31,500 bases of DNA, taken from NCBI GenBank assembly GCA_003056265.1, contig NBVN01000008.1, forward strand, positions 1-31,500, given 5' to 3'. Shown here piece by piece: positions 2,546 through 31,500 of this stretch; the first letter of the stretch is position 1, and each line of letters starts with the position of its first letter. Origin of the DNA: Zestosphaera tikiterensis. Its GTDB lineage: Archaea > Thermoproteota > Thermoprotei_A > Sulfolobales > NBVN01. Under the pieces are notes generated by a model. It worked only from the letters and a program-made list of their open reading frames with translations, did no database searches and had not been told where the DNA came from. Position numbers and translations under genes: made by a program.

Positions 2546-3709
2546 ATGGATATAGCTGTCGTATATAACTTCGCTGAGCATCCTGGAGGAGGGGATCTTG
2601 TCGCACTGGGCATAATCGAGACACTTCTCGAAAGAGGGTATACCGTAAGCTTATACACATTCCAGCCCGAGGGCATACGCAGAGCTGCGCTGTACTTCGA
2701 TAAGGATCTCAAGACCTTTGACGGGCTTAACGTTAGAAGGATTGAGGCTCCTAAAGCGATTAAACATCCCTATAATATCTACGTGATAACCAAGAAGGCT
2801 TTTAGCGAGTTGAAGCAACACGACCTAACGATATTCTTCGACGATATACCAGAACCGGCTCGTGAGCTGAAGAAGATCCTCGTCTACGTGCACTACCCGC
2901 ATGCGGCAAGAATACTGCTGAACCAGCTGGTTTCCTACCGCTATAGAGGCACGCTTAAGGGCAGGATCGTGTGGAAGTTACACTCAACACTATTCAGGCG
3001 ATACTTCCTCACAAACTGGGACGGTGAGAACATCTACGTGATAGCGAACTCGACGCTGACATACGACCACGTATTTAGAGCGTTGAGACCGCGGCATCTA
3101 GTCAAGATCTATCCGCCAGTGCAAGTCAGACAGATAATGGTCTACACTCAGAGGGTTGGTAGAAGCAAAGAGGACTTAGTTGTTTACGTGGGGAGGATTC
3201 AGCCGGAGAAGGGCATAGACGATGTAATTAAGGTGGCAGCATTGCTGAGAAGGAGCGACGTCAAGTTCAAGATAATGGGCTTCGGCTACGACAATAAATA
3301 CCTTGAATACCTAAGGAGTCTTGTGAAGGAGCTGGGGATACAGAGAGGGGTAGAGATGGAAGTGAATGCTACAAGAGAAGAGGTACTCGAAAGCCTGGCG
3401 AAAGCCAAAGTGATAGTGCACCCAGCACACTACGAGCCCTTCGGGATCGCTGTTATTGAGGGGTTGGTTGCAGGTTGCATACCGGTAGTAAGGAAGGGGT
3501 TCAACGGGCCGTGGATAGACATAGTCGAACAGGGAAGGTACGGATTAGGATTCGAAAACCCTGAAGAGCTCGCTCAAGCAATCAACACAATTATTTCGGA
3601 CAGTCGCGCTGTCAACATCGATGACGTCGCAAAGAGAGCGTTGGAGTTTGACGAAGAAGTTTTTAAAAATAGGTTCGTGGCATATTTAGAGGACATCCTT
3701 GCAAGTTGA
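2546..3709 (+). CDS. family 4 (GT-B, Glycos_transf_1) glycosyltransferase
   Basis: The C-terminal GT-B signature is GRIQPEKG ... YEPFGIAVIEGLVAGCIPVV (EX7E motif). The size (387 aa) is typical. Confidence 0.85.
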   Translation: MDIAVVYNFAEHPGGGDLVALGIIETLLERGYTVSLYTFQPEGIRRAALYFDKDLKTFDGLNVRRIEAPKAIKHPYNIYVITKKAFSELKQHDLTIFFDDIPEPARELKKILVYVHYPHAARILLNQLVSYRYRGTLKGRIVWKLHSTLFRRYFLTNWDGENIYVIANSTLTYDHVFRALRPRHLVKIYPPVQVRQIMVYTQRVGRSKEDLVVYVGRIQPEKGIDDVIKVAALLRRSDVKFKIMGFGYDNKYLEYLRSLVKELGIQRGVEMEVNATREEVLESLAKAKVIVHPAHYEPFGIAVIEGLVAGCIPVVRKGFNGPWIDIVEQGRYGLGFENPEELAQAINTIISDSRAVNIDDVAKRALEFDEEVFKNRFVAYLEDILAS

Positions 3710-3721
3710 AAGGTCAATAAT

Positions 3722-4858
3722 ATGCGCATAGCCATAGCCTGCACGTACTACCCATTTCCACCATCAATAGGTGGTGTCGAGGCAATCGCTAGAAACGTTG
3801 CTAGGGAATTGGCTAAGAGAGGTCACGAGGTCCACATAGTGACGTCTAACCTAGACGTAACGACGCAGAGGCCTGTAACCGATCTGGGAATTGAGGAGAG
3901 GGAGGGTGTTATAGTTCACAAGCTCAAGCCCAGCAACTTCAGAGTTGGCTACGCACGCACCTTGGAGGGGTTGAAGGAGACCATAGCCAAGATAAAGCCG
4001 GATATAGTGCATGCACATAACCTCCATCCACACCTCTTTCAGCTAACCAGATGGAAGAAGGATATTGGTTACAGATTAATGGCGGAGCTACACTATCCCG
4101 AGGTGAATCTCGATTTCGTTATACAAAAACTCTTAATGAAGCCTGCCATGTACTTGCTGAAGAAGGTCTCTAACCAGATGGATCTGTTCATAGTGCATAC
4201 TAAACTGGAAAGGTCGTGGCTCGAAAAGTGTGGTGTAGAAGGCAGCAGGATTAGAGTAGTGTTTACGCCGCACATATCCGACGAGTTGCTAAAATATATT
4301 TCAAGGAGTAGAAGCGGCAATGAAGTTCTTTTCGTCGGTAGGCTTGTCTTCAAAAAGGGAGTTCACATACTTATAAAAGCCTTTCATAAGGTATTAAACA
4401 AGATCCCCAACGCGAAACTCTTGATTATAGGGCCCGAAGATTCTAGGTATGGAAGATATCTGCGTGAGCTTGTAAGAAGCCTTGATCTTGAAAAGGCTGC
4501 GAGTTTCCTAGGATCCGTAGACGAGACTAAGAAGATAGAATTGATGGCTTCAGCAGCTGTATTTAGTTTGCCGACGTTGGCCGACTACCATCCAATTGCG
4601 CTCCTCGAGGCACAGGCTCTGGGAACACCTGTAGTTTCAACAAGAGTCGGAGCCATACCAGAAATAGTCATAGACGGTGAGACTGGACTGCTTGTGGAAC
4701 CAGGCAGCATCGACCAACTTGCAGAAGCGATCGAAATGTTATTAACGGACGAAAGACTCCGCAGGAAGATGTCGCAGAAAGCTAGGGAGTGGTCCAAGAA
4801 CTTCACGCTAGATAAAGCGGTCAGCAGGTTGGAGGGGATATACAAATTACTATTGTGA
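3722..4858 (+). CDS. family 4 (GT-B) glycosyltransferase
   Basis: The N-terminus reads MRIAIACTYYPFPPSIGGVEAIARNVARELAKRGHEVHIVT. The C-terminal part reads FVGRLVFKKG ... LLEAQALGTPVVSTRVGAIPEIVIDGETGLLVEPG. The gap to the upstream gene is 12 nt. Confidence 0.9.
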   Translation: MRIAIACTYYPFPPSIGGVEAIARNVARELAKRGHEVHIVTSNLDVTTQRPVTDLGIEEREGVIVHKLKPSNFRVGYARTLEGLKETIAKIKPDIVHAHNLHPHLFQLTRWKKDIGYRLMAELHYPEVNLDFVIQKLLMKPAMYLLKKVSNQMDLFIVHTKLERSWLEKCGVEGSRIRVVFTPHISDELLKYISRSRSGNEVLFVGRLVFKKGVHILIKAFHKVLNKIPNAKLLIIGPEDSRYGRYLRELVRSLDLEKAASFLGSVDETKKIELMASAAVFSLPTLADYHPIALLEAQALGTPVVSTRVGAIPEIVIDGETGLLVEPGSIDQLAEAIEMLLTDERLRRKMSQKAREWSKNFTLDKAVSRLEGIYKLLL

Positions 4859-4915
4859 AATATTTCGGTGCAGATCGAACATCGGGTTAATGCTATGTAA
4901 AAGCGTTGCCTTAAC

Positions 4916-5845
4916 GTGAACATTATGGTTTGCGGTTTAAGCCCTAGAAATTCTGCAGAAAATAAATGTAAATTGGTTCTATTGCTATTCATAGCCGCAT
5001 TTCTCCTCATAGTCTCGCCTTTGTATTCTGGATACATAGATAAAGTATTGATTGCAGATGCAAGCTATGTCTTTAGAAACCTTCCGTATACCTTTTATCT
5101 GGGTTTTGCTATCGTAAATGTACTACTAGTCGTCTTCATCTATATTGCAATAAAGCACGGCCATGTCTATCCATTCCTTTTTACTTTCGCTATAATGTTA
5201 TACATGCTTTATCTCGAATATCCAAGGCTCCTCTATCCAAATGCCTTCCAGATCGAATATTTTCACCAGGCGCAGATATACCATGCATTGAACTATGGCA
5301 TGGTCACCGACCCTGGCTACAGCTTCCCTAGATCTGATGTGGCTCACGCAATATGGACAGCGTCTCTAATAATGCTCACCGACATGCCGAAAGATTTCTC
5401 CGTGAGTTACGTGGCTCCAATTCTCGTTAGATTAGCCCTAATAGTGATTGCGTGTAGCATGGTGCTGAAATACAGCGAGAATATTAGTAATCATTTCGCC
5501 TGTGTCTTAATTCTAGCTCTTCCGCTATACATTCTGATCTCCGATACAGAGCCTCTCTTTATCAATCACTACTCCTACGCCCTTCCCTTATACCTGCTAC
5601 TCCTCTATGTAGTGAGCAGAAGGGATCTCAACTTAGAGCATAGACTAGTTTCGCACTTCATACTACTCGTTTTTATAGTGGCTTCTATAACAATAACGCA
5701 CATATACTTTGCGGCAACAACAATCCTAGCTTTCCTAGCAATACTTTTCTTTAGAATTCTTCGTGGAAATAAGGCACCGGTATTTCAGCTGTACATATTG
5801 TCAGCAATTATTTACTCTATATGGCATGGTATGGCCTCTAGCTGA
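4916..5845 (+). CDS. polytopic membrane protein (glycan polymerase/GT-C-like topology), apparently cut short by an in-frame TGA
   Basis: It is almost entirely hydrophobic helices. By eye it resembles the N-terminal part of the 6679..8460 protein. It could start at GTG-4916 or ATG-4925. The stop TGA 5843-5845 is followed by the same frame staying open to 6046. Confidence 0.6.
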   Translation: MNIMVCGLSPRNSAENKCKLVLLLFIAAFLLIVSPLYSGYIDKVLIADASYVFRNLPYTFYLGFAIVNVLLVVFIYIAIKHGHVYPFLFTFAIMLYMLYLEYPRLLYPNAFQIEYFHQAQIYHALNYGMVTDPGYSFPRSDVAHAIWTASLIMLTDMPKDFSVSYVAPILVRLALIVIACSMVLKYSENISNHFACVLILALPLYILISDTEPLFINHYSYALPLYLLLLYVVSRRDLNLEHRLVSHFILLVFIVASITITHIYFAATTILAFLAILFFRILRGNKAPVFQLYILSAIIYSIWHGMASS

Positions 5846-6091: not shown

Positions 6092-6604
6092 AAGAAGGCT
6101 GCGTGTGAGAACCTCATACACGCCTACAGCATGCTTTACGGAATCAGGGCAGTTGTGCTGAGGTACGCAAACGTAGTCGGCCCTAGGCTTAGGCATGGAG
6201 TGATCTACGACCTCCTCATGAAGCTCAGAAGGGATAGAACTAGGCTTGAGGTTCTCGGAGACGGGACGCAGGTGAGGAGCTACATATACGTAGACGATGC
6301 AGTCGACGCGACTATGATAGCCTATGAGAGGGCGGGAGAAGGCTTCAGCGCGTTCAACGTGGCAAGCGAGGACTGGATAACCGTGAGGGACGTGGTTCAG
6401 ATAATCCTGAGGGAGCTGGGCATCGAGAACATCGAGGTGGTCTACAGATCCATTATGCACGGAGTCGGCTGGCCCGGAGACATTAAGAGGATAGCGCTCA
6501 GGATAGATAGGCTGAAGGCCTTGGGCTTCAAGCCGTCAATGAACAGCGAAGAAGCCGTAGCTAAAACTGTTAAAGCACTTGCCCTTGAGTTTGAGCATGG
6601 CTAA
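6092..6604 (+). pseudogene. C-terminal fragment of a second NAD-dependent epimerase/dehydratase (Rossmann N-terminus missing)
   Basis: The frame opens right after TGA 6089-6091 with KKAACENLIHAYSMLYGIRAVVLRYANVVGPR, which lies at about the catalytic YxxxK lysine. It continues with LGDGTQVRSYIYVDDAVDA and the C-terminal substrate domain. About 130-150 N-terminal residues of a normal epimerase are absent. Confidence 0.7.
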
Positions 6605-28162: not shown

Positions 28163-28182
28163 GAAACCACCCTAAGAAACGA

Positions 28183-28192
28183 GTTTAAAACC
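28183..28192. promoter_or_regulatory. TATA-like GTTTAAAACC in the divergent 73-nt intergenic region
   Basis: It lies between the M28 gene (start 28162, minus) and the MetE-like gene (ATG-28236). The same 9-mer GTTTAAAAC recurs at 31318-31326 upstream of the corrinoid-protein gene. A second A/T box, ATAAATAAA, sits at 28195-28203. Confidence 0.3.
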
Positions 28193-28235
28193 GCATAAAT
28201 AAAGCGTTGGAAACACTACTACTTAGGGTTCCTCC

Positions 28236-29210
28236 ATGAGGAGTAGCCACGTAGGTAGTTTCCCGTTGGGATACAGCCTTGAAAACGTGGGTAGGGTTCT
28301 TAAAGACCTTGCGGCAGTAGGTATTGACGTCCCTCCATACCCTCAGATGAGGGGCTTCATAGACATATACGTTAACCCACTACTTAATGAAGGTCTTGCG
28401 TACCTAATCGGGAACTTCATATATGCTGACCCAACCCAACTAATGAAGCAGCGGGTTAAACATACCTCAATACCTGAGGCTGAGTACGCAATTCAATTCG
28501 TTAAGGAAGCTGGGCTAGGGTTTAAAGGCTTAAGAGCTCCGGTAACGGGGGCTTTCACACTATCCTCTAGGGTTTACGTAGTTAAAGGTAGTGTGGATCT
28601 CACGTCAACGGCTTTAGCTCGTAAGGAACTACTTCAAGGGTTTTTCGTTGGTTACGTGGGCGGGTTGGTTAAGTATATGTCCTCACTGGGTTATGACGTA
28701 GTCTTTATGGATGAGCCTTCACTAACTTTAGTGATAGGGGCTAGGAAAAACCTCTTCAACTACAGCGATGATGAGGTTATAGAAGCTTTAAATAACGTAG
28801 CTAAGGAATCAAACAACGCTGAGGTGGGGATTCACGTATGCGGTAGGATACATAAGAGACTTTTCGAAGTTTTAACCCGCGTACCTAAGGTGAGGTACTT
28901 AAGCTTCGAATTTCATGACAACCCAGGAAACCTGGAGGTAATTGATAAACACCTACTTGAATCCTACGATAAGGTGATATCCCCAGGCGTTGTCAGCTCT
29001 AAAAAACCCGTTGTTGAGGAGTTAAGCGAGGTCTTAAACATACTTAAGAAGGTGGTTGAGAAGGCTGGAGGTAGGGTTGATTTAATAGCTGGTGACTGCG
29101 GCTTCGCAGGGTTGAGGGGTTCCTTAGGTGATGTGGAGAGGGAGTATAGGTTATCCCTAGCTAAGCTTGAGAAAGTGGTTAAGGCTGTGAAGACGTTAAG
29201 TCAAACGTAA
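28236..29210 (+). CDS. short 'core' MetE-like zinc methyltransferase (cobalamin-independent methionine-synthase C-terminal domain family)
   Basis: The N-terminal SHVGSFPL matches the MetE GSFP motif. The Zn-ligand pattern is GIHVCG (HxC), SFEFHD (Glu) and AGDCGFAGL (Cys). At 324 aa it is the size of the archaeal single-domain MetE homologues. Confidence 0.7.
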   Translation: MRSSHVGSFPLGYSLENVGRVLKDLAAVGIDVPPYPQMRGFIDIYVNPLLNEGLAYLIGNFIYADPTQLMKQRVKHTSIPEAEYAIQFVKEAGLGFKGLRAPVTGAFTLSSRVYVVKGSVDLTSTALARKELLQGFFVGYVGGLVKYMSSLGYDVVFMDEPSLTLVIGARKNLFNYSDDEVIEALNNVAKESNNAEVGIHVCGRIHKRLFEVLTRVPKVRYLSFEFHDNPGNLEVIDKHLLESYDKVISPGVVSSKKPVVEELSEVLNILKKVVEKAGGRVDLIAGDCGFAGLRGSLGDVEREYRLSLAKLEKVVKAVKTLSQT

Positions 29211-30634
29211 ATAGGTGTTGAACCCGCCTTCCTCCAAAGCCTTTCATAAACGGCGTTTAACTCCTTAAGGACGTCATCGCTTAACTCACTGCGGCGTCCT
29301 TCCTTAAGGATTTTAAGGACTGCTTCATGGGCTTCCTCGTAGGCGTTCCTCCCACCCCATCTAGACCTGGGGGTCGCGTCCCAAACGTTCGGTATGTGTA
29401 CCTCCTTCCTAACGTACCTCCTGGTATGTGGATGTAGTAGGAAGTTACCTCCCTTCCTCAACACCACGTCCTCAATAACGTCTATAGCTAACTCCTCAAC
29501 ACTTAAGTTAAAGCCTCTCGCAAACCTCTTAACTAAGCCGCAGACTTCATTATCTAGAACCAACTTCTCAAAGGATTGAACGCTTTCAAACTCAAGCATC
29601 CCAGGGCCTGAGATTACGTCAAACCCTGAGAGGGCCGCGGTTAATGATGAGTAAGCTCCTTCAGCACCTGCTTGATAGTCCACAAGCTTAGCGTCGCTTA
29701 AACCCATGTAAGTATGTGTTGGGAGGTCTAAATACTTAGCTAAGTCTCTATATGCGATGGATATCAACATAGACTCGGGAGCTACTATAGCTACCGTGCC
29801 GTACCTAGGGTGCATAAGCGTTGGTGAACCGCCGTAAATCACTGGAGCACCTTTAGAAACTAGCTGAGCTAACACAACACCGCTTAAAACCTCCGCATGA
29901 TGTTGAACTACGGCGCCAGCCACCGTAGCTGGCGCAGTACCTCCCAACCCAGGCATCGACACGATCTCAGACGGGACTCCCGCCTTAGCTAAGTCAACAA
30001 CGTTTCTAGACGTTACCCTACTCCAGGACAGGGGCGGTGACGGGCAGGCGTCGAAGATGGCGAAGGGCCTCTTCCAAGCGTCCTCCCTAACCGCCTTAAG
30101 CATTTCAAGCATTATATGTAGGTTCTCCACGGTGAAAGCCCCAGTAACTATCGGTTTTCTAGAGTACTTCAGTATCGGATATAGTCTAACAGCGTCTTTA
30201 ACCTCTATAGGTACGTCGCTCGGAACTAAAGCCGTGCTCTGCGCGTCTATATGATCTAGATTCTCAACCAACAGCACTAGGTTCTTAAGGTCTTCCATAG
30301 TTGGGTTTCTAGGCTCTTTAGAGCCGTAGTCAAGTATTTTTATGGCTGCTGAGCCGGGATTAAAGAGTAGGGCGCCCTCCCCCAACGTAGCTACTTTCCT
30401 CCCGTCCCTATCGTATAGGTCTAACCTCTTAGGTACGTTCTTAAGAGCTTCGGAAATCAACTCCTCAGGTATTAAAACCCTACCGCCCTTCTCTATAGAG
30501 CCTGCTTCCAACAATATCCTAGCGACTTCAGGGTCTTCAAACCTAACCCCAACCCCGCTTAACAGCTTAACCGCTTTATCATGTATTTCCGAAGCTTCAC
30601 TCCTGCTTAAGATAGTTAACGTAGGTTTAGGCAT
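29201..30634 (-). CDS. MttB-superfamily (trimethylamine methyltransferase family) protein, non-pyrrolysine type
   Basis: Family-typical sequence is present: LSRSEASEIHDKAVKLLSGVGVRFEDPEVARILLEAG...RVLIPEELISEALKNVPK and GLGGTAPATVAGAVVQHHAEVLSG. It is an uninterrupted 477-aa ORF with no in-frame TAG. ATG-30634 overlaps the upstream stop by 1 nt (TAATG). Confidence 0.85.
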   Translation of the reverse strand: MPKPTLTILSRSEASEIHDKAVKLLSGVGVRFEDPEVARILLEAGSIEKGGRVLIPEELISEALKNVPKRLDLYDRDGRKVATLGEGALLFNPGSAAIKILDYGSKEPRNPTMEDLKNLVLLVENLDHIDAQSTALVPSDVPIEVKDAVRLYPILKYSRKPIVTGAFTVENLHIMLEMLKAVREDAWKRPFAIFDACPSPPLSWSRVTSRNVVDLAKAGVPSEIVSMPGLGGTAPATVAGAVVQHHAEVLSGVVLAQLVSKGAPVIYGGSPTLMHPRYGTVAIVAPESMLISIAYRDLAKYLDLPTHTYMGLSDAKLVDYQAGAEGAYSSLTAALSGFDVISGPGMLEFESVQSFEKLVLDNEVCGLVKRFARGFNLSVEELAIDVIEDVVLRKGGNFLLHPHTRRYVRKEVHIPNVWDATPRSRWGGRNAYEEAHEAVLKILKEGRRSELSDDVLKELNAVYERLWRKAGSTPIYV

Positions 30635-31296
30635 TAAACAACCCCCAACAACTCCTTAACCTTCTTTAAAGCTTTAAAGGCGTCGTCACCGCATACGTCC
30701 GCACCAACCTCCTTAACCCACTCCTCAGTTACTGGAGCCCCTCCAACCACAACCACGACCTTATCTCTTAACCCTCTACGCCTCAACTCCTCAACAACTT
30801 TTTTCTGTTCAACCATCGTAGTAGTCATTAAAGCTGAAGCCCCAACGACTTTAGCTCCGTAGGCCTCAACAGCCTCAGCGAATTTCTCCGGGGGTACGTC
30901 AACACCTAAGTCAATAACTTCAAAGCCTTCAGCCTTGAACAACGCTTTAGCTATGTTCTTACCGAGTTCGTGAATATCCCCTCTAACCGTACCGAAAACA
31001 GCTACAACCCCCTTACCACTCCTTGAGGAGGTGAGCTTAGGCTTAAGCACATCCTCAAAAGCTTGTCTGAAGGCCTCAGCCGAAGCTATTAAATCAGCTA
31101 TGAAGTACTCACCCCTTTCATACATCTCCCCAACCACCTTCATAGCAGGCGCTAAAACCTCAGAAACTATTTGAAGGACGTCAACGTCGGCGTCAACCAA
31201 CGCTTTAGCGCTCTCAACAGCCCCTTCGATATCGCCCTCAACTATAGCTTTATGGAGTTTAACCTTAACATCCTCTAAAGCCGTGATCCCACCCAC
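30634..31296 (-). CDS. corrinoid (B12-binding) methyl-carrier protein, MttC/MtgC-like
   Basis: It has an N-terminal helical cap followed by a Rossmann-like B12 domain. Motifs are GDIHELG (DxHxxG), SALMTT (SxL) and VVVGGAPV (GG). The start is GTG-31296. Confidence 0.9.
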   Translation of the reverse strand: MGGITALEDVKVKLHKAIVEGDIEGAVESAKALVDADVDVLQIVSEVLAPAMKVVGEMYERGEYFIADLIASAEAFRQAFEDVLKPKLTSSRSGKGVVAVFGTVRGDIHELGKNIAKALFKAEGFEVIDLGVDVPPEKFAEAVEAYGAKVVGASALMTTTMVEQKKVVEELRRRGLRDKVVVVVGGAPVTEEWVKEVGADVCGDDAFKALKKVKELLGVV

Positions 31297-31319
31297 ATAA
31301 TTAACTGCTGAAGACGTGT

Positions 31320-31353
31320 TTAAAACGTTAAAACATTAAAAACATCTTAAACC
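31320..31353. repeat. four TTAAA(A)C words in the divergent promoter region of the corrinoid cluster
   Basis: TTAAAAC occurs at 31320-31326 and 31328-31334, TTAAAAAC at 31336-31343, and TTAAACC at 31347-31353. All were read directly from the sequence. Confidence 0.6.
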
Positions 31354-31408
31354 ACCCACCGCAACTTATTTGACTTAAGTTAACGTATGTATGTGAGGGC
31401 CGGGCTTA

Positions 31409-31500
31409 ATGCTTAAGCTTAAGTTGATTGGCTCACGCGGCGGTAAGCCACTTCTTGAGTTGCTTAGGGAGTTGGGGGTTAAGGTAAGGTCTGACTGCGG
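31409..31500 (+). CDS. N-terminus of a [2Fe-2S]-ferredoxin-domain protein, probably a RACo/RamA-like corrinoid reductive activase (runs off the right edge)
   Basis: MLKLKLIGSRGGKPLLELLRELGVKVRSDC(G) resembles the start of COG3894-type activators (..LLEAA...GI.I...CGG.G.CGKC). It is divergent from the corrinoid-protein gene. Only 30 codons are visible. Confidence 0.4.
   Translation, partial: MLKLKLIGSRGGKPLLELLRELGVKVRSDC

Follow-up and report, generated by a model that had tools for sequence, protein, structure and literature searches.

A MetE-like protein paired with an MttB-family methyltransferase and its corrinoid protein in Zestosphaera tikiterensis suggests a methylated-amine route to methionine

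Introduction

Since 1999 it has been an open question which compound donates the methyl group to core, folate-independent methionine synthases in the cell; work on the core MetE of methanogens reportedly goes back to Schroeder and Thauer in that year. In vitro these enzymes accept free methylcobalamin at a poor Km; that corrinoid proteins are the donors in vivo has only been inferred (PMC7005905, PMC7857596). A gene cluster in Zestosphaera tikiterensis raises the question in concrete form. It occupies positions 28236-31500 of a 31,500-nt stretch (contig NBVN01000008.1, positions 1-31,500), which was analyzed as a whole and is called the window here. In the cluster, a gene for a MetE-like protein (METEL) adjoins genes for a homologue of the methyltransferase MttB and for a corrinoid protein (CoP), followed by the beginning of a putative reductive activase of the RACo type. 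Does METEL take its methyl group from this particular corrinoid protein, and does the MttB homologue put it there?

An earlier note on this DNA proposed that it does, by a direct route from methylated amine to corrinoid to homocysteine or another thiol. Comparative genomics largely supports that route, to which, taken as a whole chain, we assign a probability of about 0.58. The argument rests on the conserved residues and predicted fold of METEL, on the partners that METEL keeps across genomes, and on the apparent exchange of one methyl-loading module for another beside it.

Organization of the gene cluster

The METEL gene (28236-29210, + strand) encodes 324 residues that match Pfam Meth_synt_2 with 31.8 bits (cut-off 21). 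Converging on it from the minus strand is the gene for the 477-residue MttB homologue (29201-30634), a protein of the MttB superfamily (PF06253/COG5598; 270.6 bits vs a cut-off of 25, residues 4-465) without an in-frame stop. The CoP gene (30634-31296, − strand) encodes 220 residues from a GTG start that is uncertain by a few codons and contains both B12 domains (B12-binding, 96 bits; B12-binding_2, 69.6 bits). Divergent from this pair, an ATG at 31409 opens a plus-strand frame that leaves the window at its end (31409..31500); its first 30 codons translate as MLKLKLIGSRGGKPLLELLRELGVKVRSDC, the last residues being RSDC. The open reading frame table and Pfam thus bear out the four-gene set of the earlier note, and the two junctions it described can be read in the sequence: the CoP and mttB-like genes share a TAATG stop/start overlap, and the 3′ ends of METEL and the mttB-like gene overlap by 10 nt (29201-29210), which hold the minus-strand TGA of mttB and the TAA of METEL. 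The motifs it listed for CoP are likewise present in the translation, as GDIHELG (DxHxxG), SALM (SxL) and VGGAP (GG). With both B12 domains, this series of motifs and a gene beside that of the first methyltransferase (MT1), CoP has the features of an MttC/MtbC/MtgC-type protein; it falls under the specific equivalog cut-offs (MtgC, MtbC, pyl_corrinoid), scoring 184.6 bits with NCBIfam pyl_corrinoid and 184 bits with MtgC_2.

The 30 activase codons stop at the first cysteine of the [2Fe-2S] cluster motif and alone cannot identify a protein, so that the assignment depends on synteny. At the closest relative (locus L169; loci are numbered with the prefix L), whose MttB is 85% identical, the divergent gene at this position encodes 601 residues with Fer2, RACo_linker, Raco_middle and RACo_C_ter domains and begins with MLKLRLISTQNGRLLLDLLKELNIGIRSDCGGVGVCGKC. 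Nine further syntenic loci, L001-L003 from Zestosphaera and others from six other species-level genomes, have a RACo gene at the same place. All these activases (L169, L001-L010) are 592-605 residues long and carry all four Pfam domains, with N-termini matching the 30 codons of the window. Judged by this synteny, the gene at 31409 is probably that of a RACo-type ATP-dependent activase with an N-terminal [2Fe-2S] domain, as had been suspected from its first codons (RACo/RamA).

Upstream of METEL, the intergenic region 28163..28235 (+), divergent from an M28 peptidase gene, contains the A/T-rich elements TTTAAAA and ATAAATAAA 30-55 nt 5′ of the ATG and probably carries the gene's own archaeal promoter. 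The intergenic stretch that separates the activase gene from the divergent CoP-MttB operon (31297..31408, no strand assigned) holds the A/T-rich elements TTTAAAA and TTAAAAACA, partially conserved in L169, and two promoters are presumed there. An Rfam scan of the whole window found no riboswitch and no RNA gene.

Structure and family of METEL

In 37 METEL homologues, S8 (in GSFP), Q37, D159-E160-P161, H200, C202, E225 and C288 are invariant. Aligned to Thermotoga maritima MetE, H200-x-C202, E225 and C288 coincide with the zinc ligands, which is the HxC...E...C site that the earlier note had read, and D159-E-P falls on the homocysteine-binding DEP motif, with D159 equivalent to D599 of E. coli MetE. 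A Ser/Gln/Asp homocysteine-binding pattern has been described for MesA and MesC (PMC7857596), and S8/Q37/D159 of METEL is of this type. An AlphaFold (AF2) model built on the METEL alignment has a predicted local distance difference test (pLDDT) score of 95.1 and a predicted template modeling (pTM) score of 0.92. Its best Foldseek matches are homocysteine- or methionine-bound catalytic barrels of MetE (TM 0.69-0.75, E ~5e-13), followed by 1YPX (TM 0.68), MesD (3RPD, 0.65), an MtaA-type enzyme (4ay7, 0.60) and then UroD. METEL thus combines the ligands, the homocysteine-binding residues and the (β/α)8 fold of MetE-type zinc thiol methyltransferases, and therefore is a single-barrel core enzyme of that type. 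As its function we propose core methionine synthesis, METEL serving as a methyl-corrinoid-protein:homocysteine methyltransferase.

The family to which METEL belongs is small and centered on Thermoproteota. A profile search run exhaustively over 1.84 billion representative proteins yields no more than 55 representatives at E ≤ 1e-30, or 279 if E ≤ 1e-3 is allowed, and the periphery shades into proteins with their best score on PRK00957 'methionine synthase', a model that we take to be of the methanogen MesA type. Our literature search found no paper that defines the family or its module.

Known kinds of methionine synthase were considered as identities for METEL and rejected. Canonical MetE is ruled out, since METEL has 324 residues and one barrel, as against ~750 residues and two barrels including an N-terminal folate-binding one, and reaches 17-19 bits with TIGR01371 and PRK05222, whose cut-offs are 541-930. 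The reading that METEL is not a methyl-folate enzyme is upheld by the same facts: a single barrel without the folate half, and scores far under the cut-offs of methyl-folate MetE models. For MesA, MesC and the catalytic subunit of split MetE we used PRK00957, PRK06052 and PRK04326 as stand-ins, a mapping that we infer; METEL scores 57 bits (cut-off 258), 59 (387) and 35 (406), respectively, and no Meth_synt_1 partner gene is adjacent. Price et al. set their family thresholds at 174 bits or more to MesA and 200 bits or more to PF1269 (PMC7857596). The MesD structure 3RPD gives no sequence match at E ≤ 1 and is matched in fold only, and no DUF1852 gene neighbors METEL. The N-terminal, pterin-binding subunit of split MetE was also rejected: Meth_synt_1 scores 23.8 bits, under its cut-off, and the zinc ligands and DEP are invariant.

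Genomic neighborhoods of METEL

Scanning one genome per species with the METEL alignment gave 80 loci, whose neighboring open reading frames were clustered and the clusters named by Pfam. The loci come from Desulfurococcaceae, Ignisphaera, Pyrodictiaceae, Staphylothermus, Thermogladius, other Thermoprotei and Bathyarchaeia. Neighbors were counted within 6 kb of METEL at 82 loci. A corrinoid protein is encoded at 43 of the 82 and RACo at 41, and co-conservation with corrinoid machinery, set beforehand as a test of the proposal, is thereby found. An MtrH-like methyl-tetrahydromethanopterin (H4MPT):corrinoid methyltransferase (PF02007, 159 bits for the cluster representative) is present at 28/82 loci, a short MTHFR-like gene at 22/82 and a clear MTHFR at 5/82; URO-D-family methyltransferases (6/82) and MttB (9/82) also occur. 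MtrH and MttB are mutually exclusive beside METEL, no locus (0/82) having both. The commonest gene order is MtrH> RACo< CoP< METEL> MTHFR-like<.

From these counts and from the exclusivity of MtrH and MttB, we conclude that the default module is a split cobamide-dependent methionine synthase composed of the MTHFR-like protein, MtrH, CoP, METEL and RACo, which would normally draw its methyl group from methyl-H4MPT or a related pterin through MtrH. Since its usual partners are MtrH-CoP-RACo and an MTHFR-like gene, the core job of METEL is most likely cobamide-dependent methionine synthesis. At five loci (L057, L059, L061, L064, L066), a BtuFCD-like ABC transporter (FecCD permease, Peripla_BP_2 binding protein, ATPase) lies beside METEL and MtrH, consistent with cobamide uptake. 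A neighborhood of CoP, MtrH and a metE homologue in 'Ca. Methanomethylicus' is mentioned in passing by Loh et al. (PMC7886697).

Other arrangements were also seen. The METEL genes of Ignisphaera (L005, Ignisphaera aggregans DSM 17230; L021, L023, L068) have no corrinoid neighbor, adjoin CitG and are flanked by a block resembling H4MPT-biosynthesis genes (GCHY-1/MptA, MptE-like, Pterin_bind, DHNA, Fae); MtrH homologues are present elsewhere in the genus. Four Desulfurococcaceae loci (L012, L013, L017, L020) show METEL> RACo> CoP with a gene for a 427-430-residue URO-D-family protein, and L015 and L016 have the order MtrH> METEL> URO-D> CoP>. Such a URO-D/MtaA-like gene near METEL may represent a further methyl-loading or methyl-accepting module. 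The most distant METEL homologues, 34-38% identical, are those of Bathyarchaeia (L075, L079-L084); no corrinoid gene is nearby, and the conserved block around them contains a diphthamide-synthase-like gene, a 461-residue protein and two very large proteins (~1110 and ~1280 residues).

Pairing of METEL with MttB and exchange of the loading module

The best relatives of the three complete proteins of the window are from Zestosphaera and other Desulfurococcaceae (METEL 64-81%, MttB 70-85% identical). The layout of the window is kept in L001-3, L006-10, L018, L089 and L169/170, and METEL, MttB and CoP are also together in L014 and L090, with no RACo in the stretch examined. As the arrangement recurs in at least 13 other contigs, over which identity ranges from 54 to 81% for METEL and from 69 to 85% for MttB, the adjacency is not due to chance. 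The overlapping ends of the METEL and MttB genes are shared by the window and its closest relative L170.

The combination is also found in other forms. In L071 the genes form a same-strand operon, METEL>RACo>CoP>MttB, and in L088 another, METEL>CoP>MttB, with MttB proteins 46% and 52% identical to that of the window, respectively. In a neighbor-joining tree, the METELs of L071 and L088 lie on a separate, distant branch, and the clade of the window is nested among MtrH-linked Desulfurococcales sequences. METEL is thus found with MttB and CoP in three gene orders and on two separate branches of its tree, a distribution by which the METEL-CoP-MttB combination is judged to recur independently. L088 is from a Thermoprotei metagenome-assembled genome and has no RACo nearby; ~1 kb upstream of its operon, with a metallo-beta-lactamase-fold gene between, it encodes a 553-residue protein with a B12-binding domain (3664-5325, −), which could represent another kind of activase or a B12 enzyme of the radical-SAM type.

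The other members of the set follow MttB. The CoP of the window is 57-78% identical to MttB-linked CoPs, as against 38-45% to MtrH-linked ones. For RACo, identity is 67-75% within the clade of the window and 29-35% in L071/L087, vs 27-32% to MtrH-type loci. Because the CoP and RACo identities track MttB and not METEL, the whole MT1-CoP-RACo module has been exchanged beside a constant METEL. The likely course is that the Zestosphaera-like clade, in a lineage-specific event, swapped an MtrH/CoP/RACo set for one of MttB/CoP/RACo whose relatives are found in Thermofilaceae.

The MtrH partner was looked for and not found close by. Neither the window nor the ~10-kb flanks of the syntenic Zestosphaera loci contain an MtrH, pterin-binding, MTHFR or URO-D/MtaA-type gene. 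The earlier note had seen no MetH-like pterin-binding or MtaA/MtbA-type second methyltransferase (MT2) in the window, which holds, and the canonical MT2 that might have stood just outside it is absent within ~10 kb in the syntenic loci. Zestosphaera is not among the named MtrH matches in the best 120, which are mostly unnamed; this is weak evidence. In the Zestosphaera-type loci L007-L010 and L018, RACo is followed directly by genes for an Asp/Glu/hydantoin racemase and for a 348-residue protein without annotation, in place of which L169 (3197-2631) has a nitroreductase and an aldehyde:ferredoxin oxidoreductase.

Substrate pocket and relatives of the MttB homologue

The MttB homologue aligns over its full length with both pyrrolysine (Pyl)-dependent MttB (7xcl) and MtgB (9yce/2qne), at ~189 bits each, and its pocket was compared by sequence alignment to these solved structures. 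Pyl334 of the Methanosarcina barkeri enzyme corresponds to L312, in keeping with the uninterrupted frame and with the claim that the protein is a non-Pyl member; G110 and Y364 of Pyl-MttB are replaced by S95 and S342. MtgB binds glycine betaine through Y97, R312, H348 and F356 (PMC13080624), and the corresponding residues in the window's protein are S95, H307, S342 and E350. In an alignment of 36 sequences of its clade, there is no variation at S95 and H307 and hardly any at S342 and E350. A Pyl-dependent trimethylamine enzyme (TIGR02369) was rejected on the lack of an in-frame UAG, on G110 and Y364 not being kept and on a score of 344 bits vs a cut-off of 525. An MtgB-type glycine betaine enzyme was rejected on the four substrate residues. 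The pocket inspection called for by the earlier note thus returned neither the glycine betaine signature of MtgB nor that of Pyl-MttB. Because the residues of both are missing, no placement among MtgB, MtpB, MtcB and MtyB is justified, and the residues suggest a substrate that is neither obviously trimethylamine nor glycine betaine.

The nearest relatives are all uncharacterised Thermoproteota proteins. Members of the clade of the window are 66-85% identical, and beyond it stand Thermofilum, Infirmifilum and other Thermofilaceae at 59-64%. The closest CoP-MttB pair outside Desulfurococcaceae, 63-64% identical, is that of the cultured Thermofilum pendens Hrk5 (L086; CP000505.1, 1410348-1427775). 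Within 8 kb of it there is no activase, METEL, MtrH or URO-D gene; radical SAM and DUF364/DUF4213 genes lie just upstream. In L087 (GCA_026993785.1, JALWRZ010000003.1; MttB 55%), CoP-MttB-RACo is accompanied by a URO-D methyltransferase and an amino-acid permease. This cluster also has a saccharopine-dehydrogenase-like gene and adjoins genes for the glycine-cleavage P-protein, a context that hints at an amino-acid-derived methylated substrate. L092 (MttB 54%) has MtrH nearby, metagenomic relatives at 42-47% identity often combine RACo, MtrH and CoP, and mtrH-mttB-mttC-ramA clusters are known from Culexarchaeia (PMC9723716). Given such varied contexts, MttB-CoP is a mobile loading module that is plugged into different acceptors, METEL being one of them.

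A proposed relay and its alternatives

[quoted passage not shown] METEL, as MT2, would then present a zinc-activated thiolate, most likely that of homocysteine, to methyl-Co(III) CoP and release methionine, and the RACo-type activase would use ATP to re-reduce CoP that has been accidentally oxidized to Co(II). With the pterin-dependent donor swapped for a methylamine-type demethylase, the methyl group of methionine may come directly from a methylated amine. The direction of methyl flow, the homocysteine acceptor, the amine donor and the route of the cell to methionine are what we infer from gene content, co-conservation and conserved residues. The parts differ in strength: that METEL is coupled to the adjacent CoP is highly probable, an N-methyl compound is the likely donor, and homocysteine is a reasonably likely acceptor.

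Several observations weigh against this relay, and many of them would fit an adjacency without function. METEL would then be a housekeeping methionine synthase served by a CoP and MtrH encoded elsewhere, or by pterin directly, and MttB-CoP-RACo a separate methylamine or quaternary-amine module with its MT2 elsewhere. The METEL gene is convergent to the CoP-MttB operon and not co-transcribed with it, so the two are separate transcription units. About half of the METEL loci (those of Ignisphaera and Bathyarchaeia) have no corrinoid gene nearby, and METEL therefore does not need an adjacent CoP. Conversely, CoP-MttB stands alone in T. pendens, has a URO-D partner in L087 and MtrH nearby in L092, and lacks METEL in Thermofilum and in the majority of metagenomic relatives, MtrH frequently being the presumed MT2 (PMC9723716). 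The search for acceptors covered loci, namely the window and 10-kb flanks, rather than whole genomes, and the genome may encode MtrH, split MetE or another MT2 elsewhere. However, independent genes would hardly account for a pairing that at least 13 contigs keep, even where identity drops to 54% (METEL) and 69% (MttB), and that has overlapping ends in the window and L170, nor for co-directional operons in two unrelated lineages (L071, L088). MttB-CoP-RACo sits where MtrH-CoP-RACo sits in sister lineages, the two exclude each other, and MT2 is absent within 10 kb. We therefore regard this explanation as unlikely.

Further points concern the chemistry of a relay that is coupled. METEL scores under every cut-off of the curated NCBI methionine-synthase models, which leaves room for another thiol, such as a CoM-like cofactor, sulfide/methanethiol or a mercapto-acid; METEL would then be the MT2 of a catabolic or detoxifying demethylation. 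Its fold also resembles the MtaA-type methylcobamide:coenzyme M (CoM) methyltransferases (4ay7), L087 has a URO-D/MtaA-like partner MT2 beside a relative of the window's MttB, and URO-D genes occur in METEL loci L012/13/15/16/17/20. Yet the closest structural counterparts are MetE enzymes that hold homocysteine or methionine, the default neighbors MtrH and the MTHFR-like gene are what an anabolic methionine synthase needs, the Ignisphaera METEL lies among H4MPT-biosynthesis genes, and the edge of the family grades into 'methionine synthase' PRK00957, so that a different acceptor is quite unlikely. The pocket of the MttB homologue likewise differs from each characterised member compared (Pyl-MttB, MtgB), S95, H307, S342 and E350 fitting neither known signature. 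It might therefore take a non-amine donor in its place as substitute for MtrH within an otherwise anabolic cluster, or the relay might run in reverse, with METEL demethylating methionine or a methyl-thioether onto CoP; corrinoid methyl transfers are reversible in principle, and MtgD of Ruegeria is described as bidirectional (PMC12478193). Against this, all characterised MttB-superfamily enzymes use N-methyl donors (PMC13080624, PMC12155760), MetE-type enzymes are known thiol alkylators, and two MT1-type loaders without an acceptor make no pathway. Reversal or a non-amine donor is accordingly very improbable, and transfer from a methylated amine to homocysteine is the reading carried into the comparison below.

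Remainder of the window

Immediately to the left of the cluster lie genes for an archaeal ATPase, a GNAT acetyltransferase and the M28 peptidase; outside the cluster, the window has no genes related to it. Positions 1-24000 form a long same-strand polysaccharide-biosynthesis island that encodes GT2/GT4 glycosyltransferases, NAD-dependent epimerases and a polysaccharide deacetylase, together with methyltransferases of the FkbM type and of class I. The GC content moves between 0.35 and 0.54 from one kilobase to the next, suggesting a mosaic surface-glycan locus. Within the island, a 157-residue open reading frame (6131-6604, +) matches the C-terminal third of the NAD-dependent epimerase family only (profile positions 160-240) and is possibly a gene fragment or pseudogene.

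Comparison with known systems

The component kinds found here are known: the MttB superfamily, cognate CoPs, RACo and MetE-type core enzymes have been described, and transfer from CoP to a core methionine synthase is a standing hypothesis (PMC7005905, PMC7857596). What is new is METEL as a family of its own, with gene neighborhoods that point to its corrinoid partner, the interchangeable MtrH, MttB and URO-D loaders, and, in hyperthermophilic archaea, the direct pairing of a MetE-type acceptor with an MttB subtype whose pocket fits no assigned signature. For a pairing of MttB with core MetE, our literature search found no description, and the supplementary tables of Price et al., searched for Desulfurococcales genera, contained nothing. 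A core-MetE-type gene is here tied physically and evolutionarily to a specific CoP, activase and loading enzyme, which provides a four-protein set for direct reconstitution. The modular methionine synthase is widespread in Desulfurococcales and relatives and fills a gap in an amino-acid pathway in archaea annotated only with generic 'methionine synthase' names. The MttB subtype suggests that methylated amines supply methyl groups for anabolism in some hyperthermophilic heterotrophs. More tentatively, with the balance somewhat against it, METEL could be a fifth, hitherto undefined family of core methionine synthases in Thermoproteota, hard-wired to dedicated CoPs with exchangeable loaders of the MtrH, MttB and URO-D types, and the Zestosphaera-like lineage could take the methyl of methionine directly from an environmental methylated amine through a new MttB specificity, without a pterin one-carbon carrier.

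METEL resembles MesA and the core MetEs in being a single barrel of ~300-340 residues without a folate half, with the HxC...E...C zinc site, the Ser/Gln/Asp pattern and a corrinoid protein as the expected methyl source. It differs in lying under the PRK00957, PRK06052 and PRK04326 cut-offs, in its hosts, which are non-methanogenic Thermoproteota, and in its gene linkage, which is to RACo, an exchangeable MT1 (MtrH, MttB or URO-D) and a small CoP dedicated to it rather than to the corrinoid iron-sulfur protein of the Wood-Ljungdahl pathway. From Thermoprotei, Price et al. reported only split MetE (PMC7857596).

Among non-Pyl MttB systems (MtgBCA, MtpB, MtcB, MtyB and MthB, from the Krzycki and Ferguson laboratories) and the Culexarchaeia clusters (PMC9723716), the window shares a non-Pyl MT1, a CoP encoded immediately upstream and, probably, a RamA/RACo activase. 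In those systems, however, MT2 is a pterin methyltransferase (MtgA/MtqA/MtrH) or an MtaA/MtbA-type CoM methyltransferase, whereas the sole candidate in the window is MetE-like. In Ruegeria, MtgB-MtgC-MtgE links the demethylation of glycine betaine with the synthesis of methionine (Mausz et al. 2025, PMC12478193), the nearest precedent, from bacteria, which somewhat lowers the conceptual novelty of linking MttB to methionine. As in MtgBCDE of Ruegeria pomeroyi and Phaeobacter, an MttB-family demethylase and a homocysteine methyltransferase would share one CoP. There, the homocysteine module MtgE is of the PF02574 (MetH/BHMT) type and a pterin module, MtgD, is included; here, the acceptor is MetE-type, no pterin module is nearby, the MttB homologue lacks the glycine betaine residues and the host is an anaerobic hyperthermophilic archaeon.

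The default METEL module, finally, follows the four-module logic of MetH, with a pterin methyltransferase, a B12 protein, a homocysteine methyltransferase and a means of reactivation. Unlike MetH, it is built of separate proteins, its homocysteine module has the MetE fold rather than PF02574, and its reactivation depends on ATP and RACo as against S-adenosylmethionine and flavodoxin. The window departs one step further from MetH, in that the pterin module is replaced by MttB.

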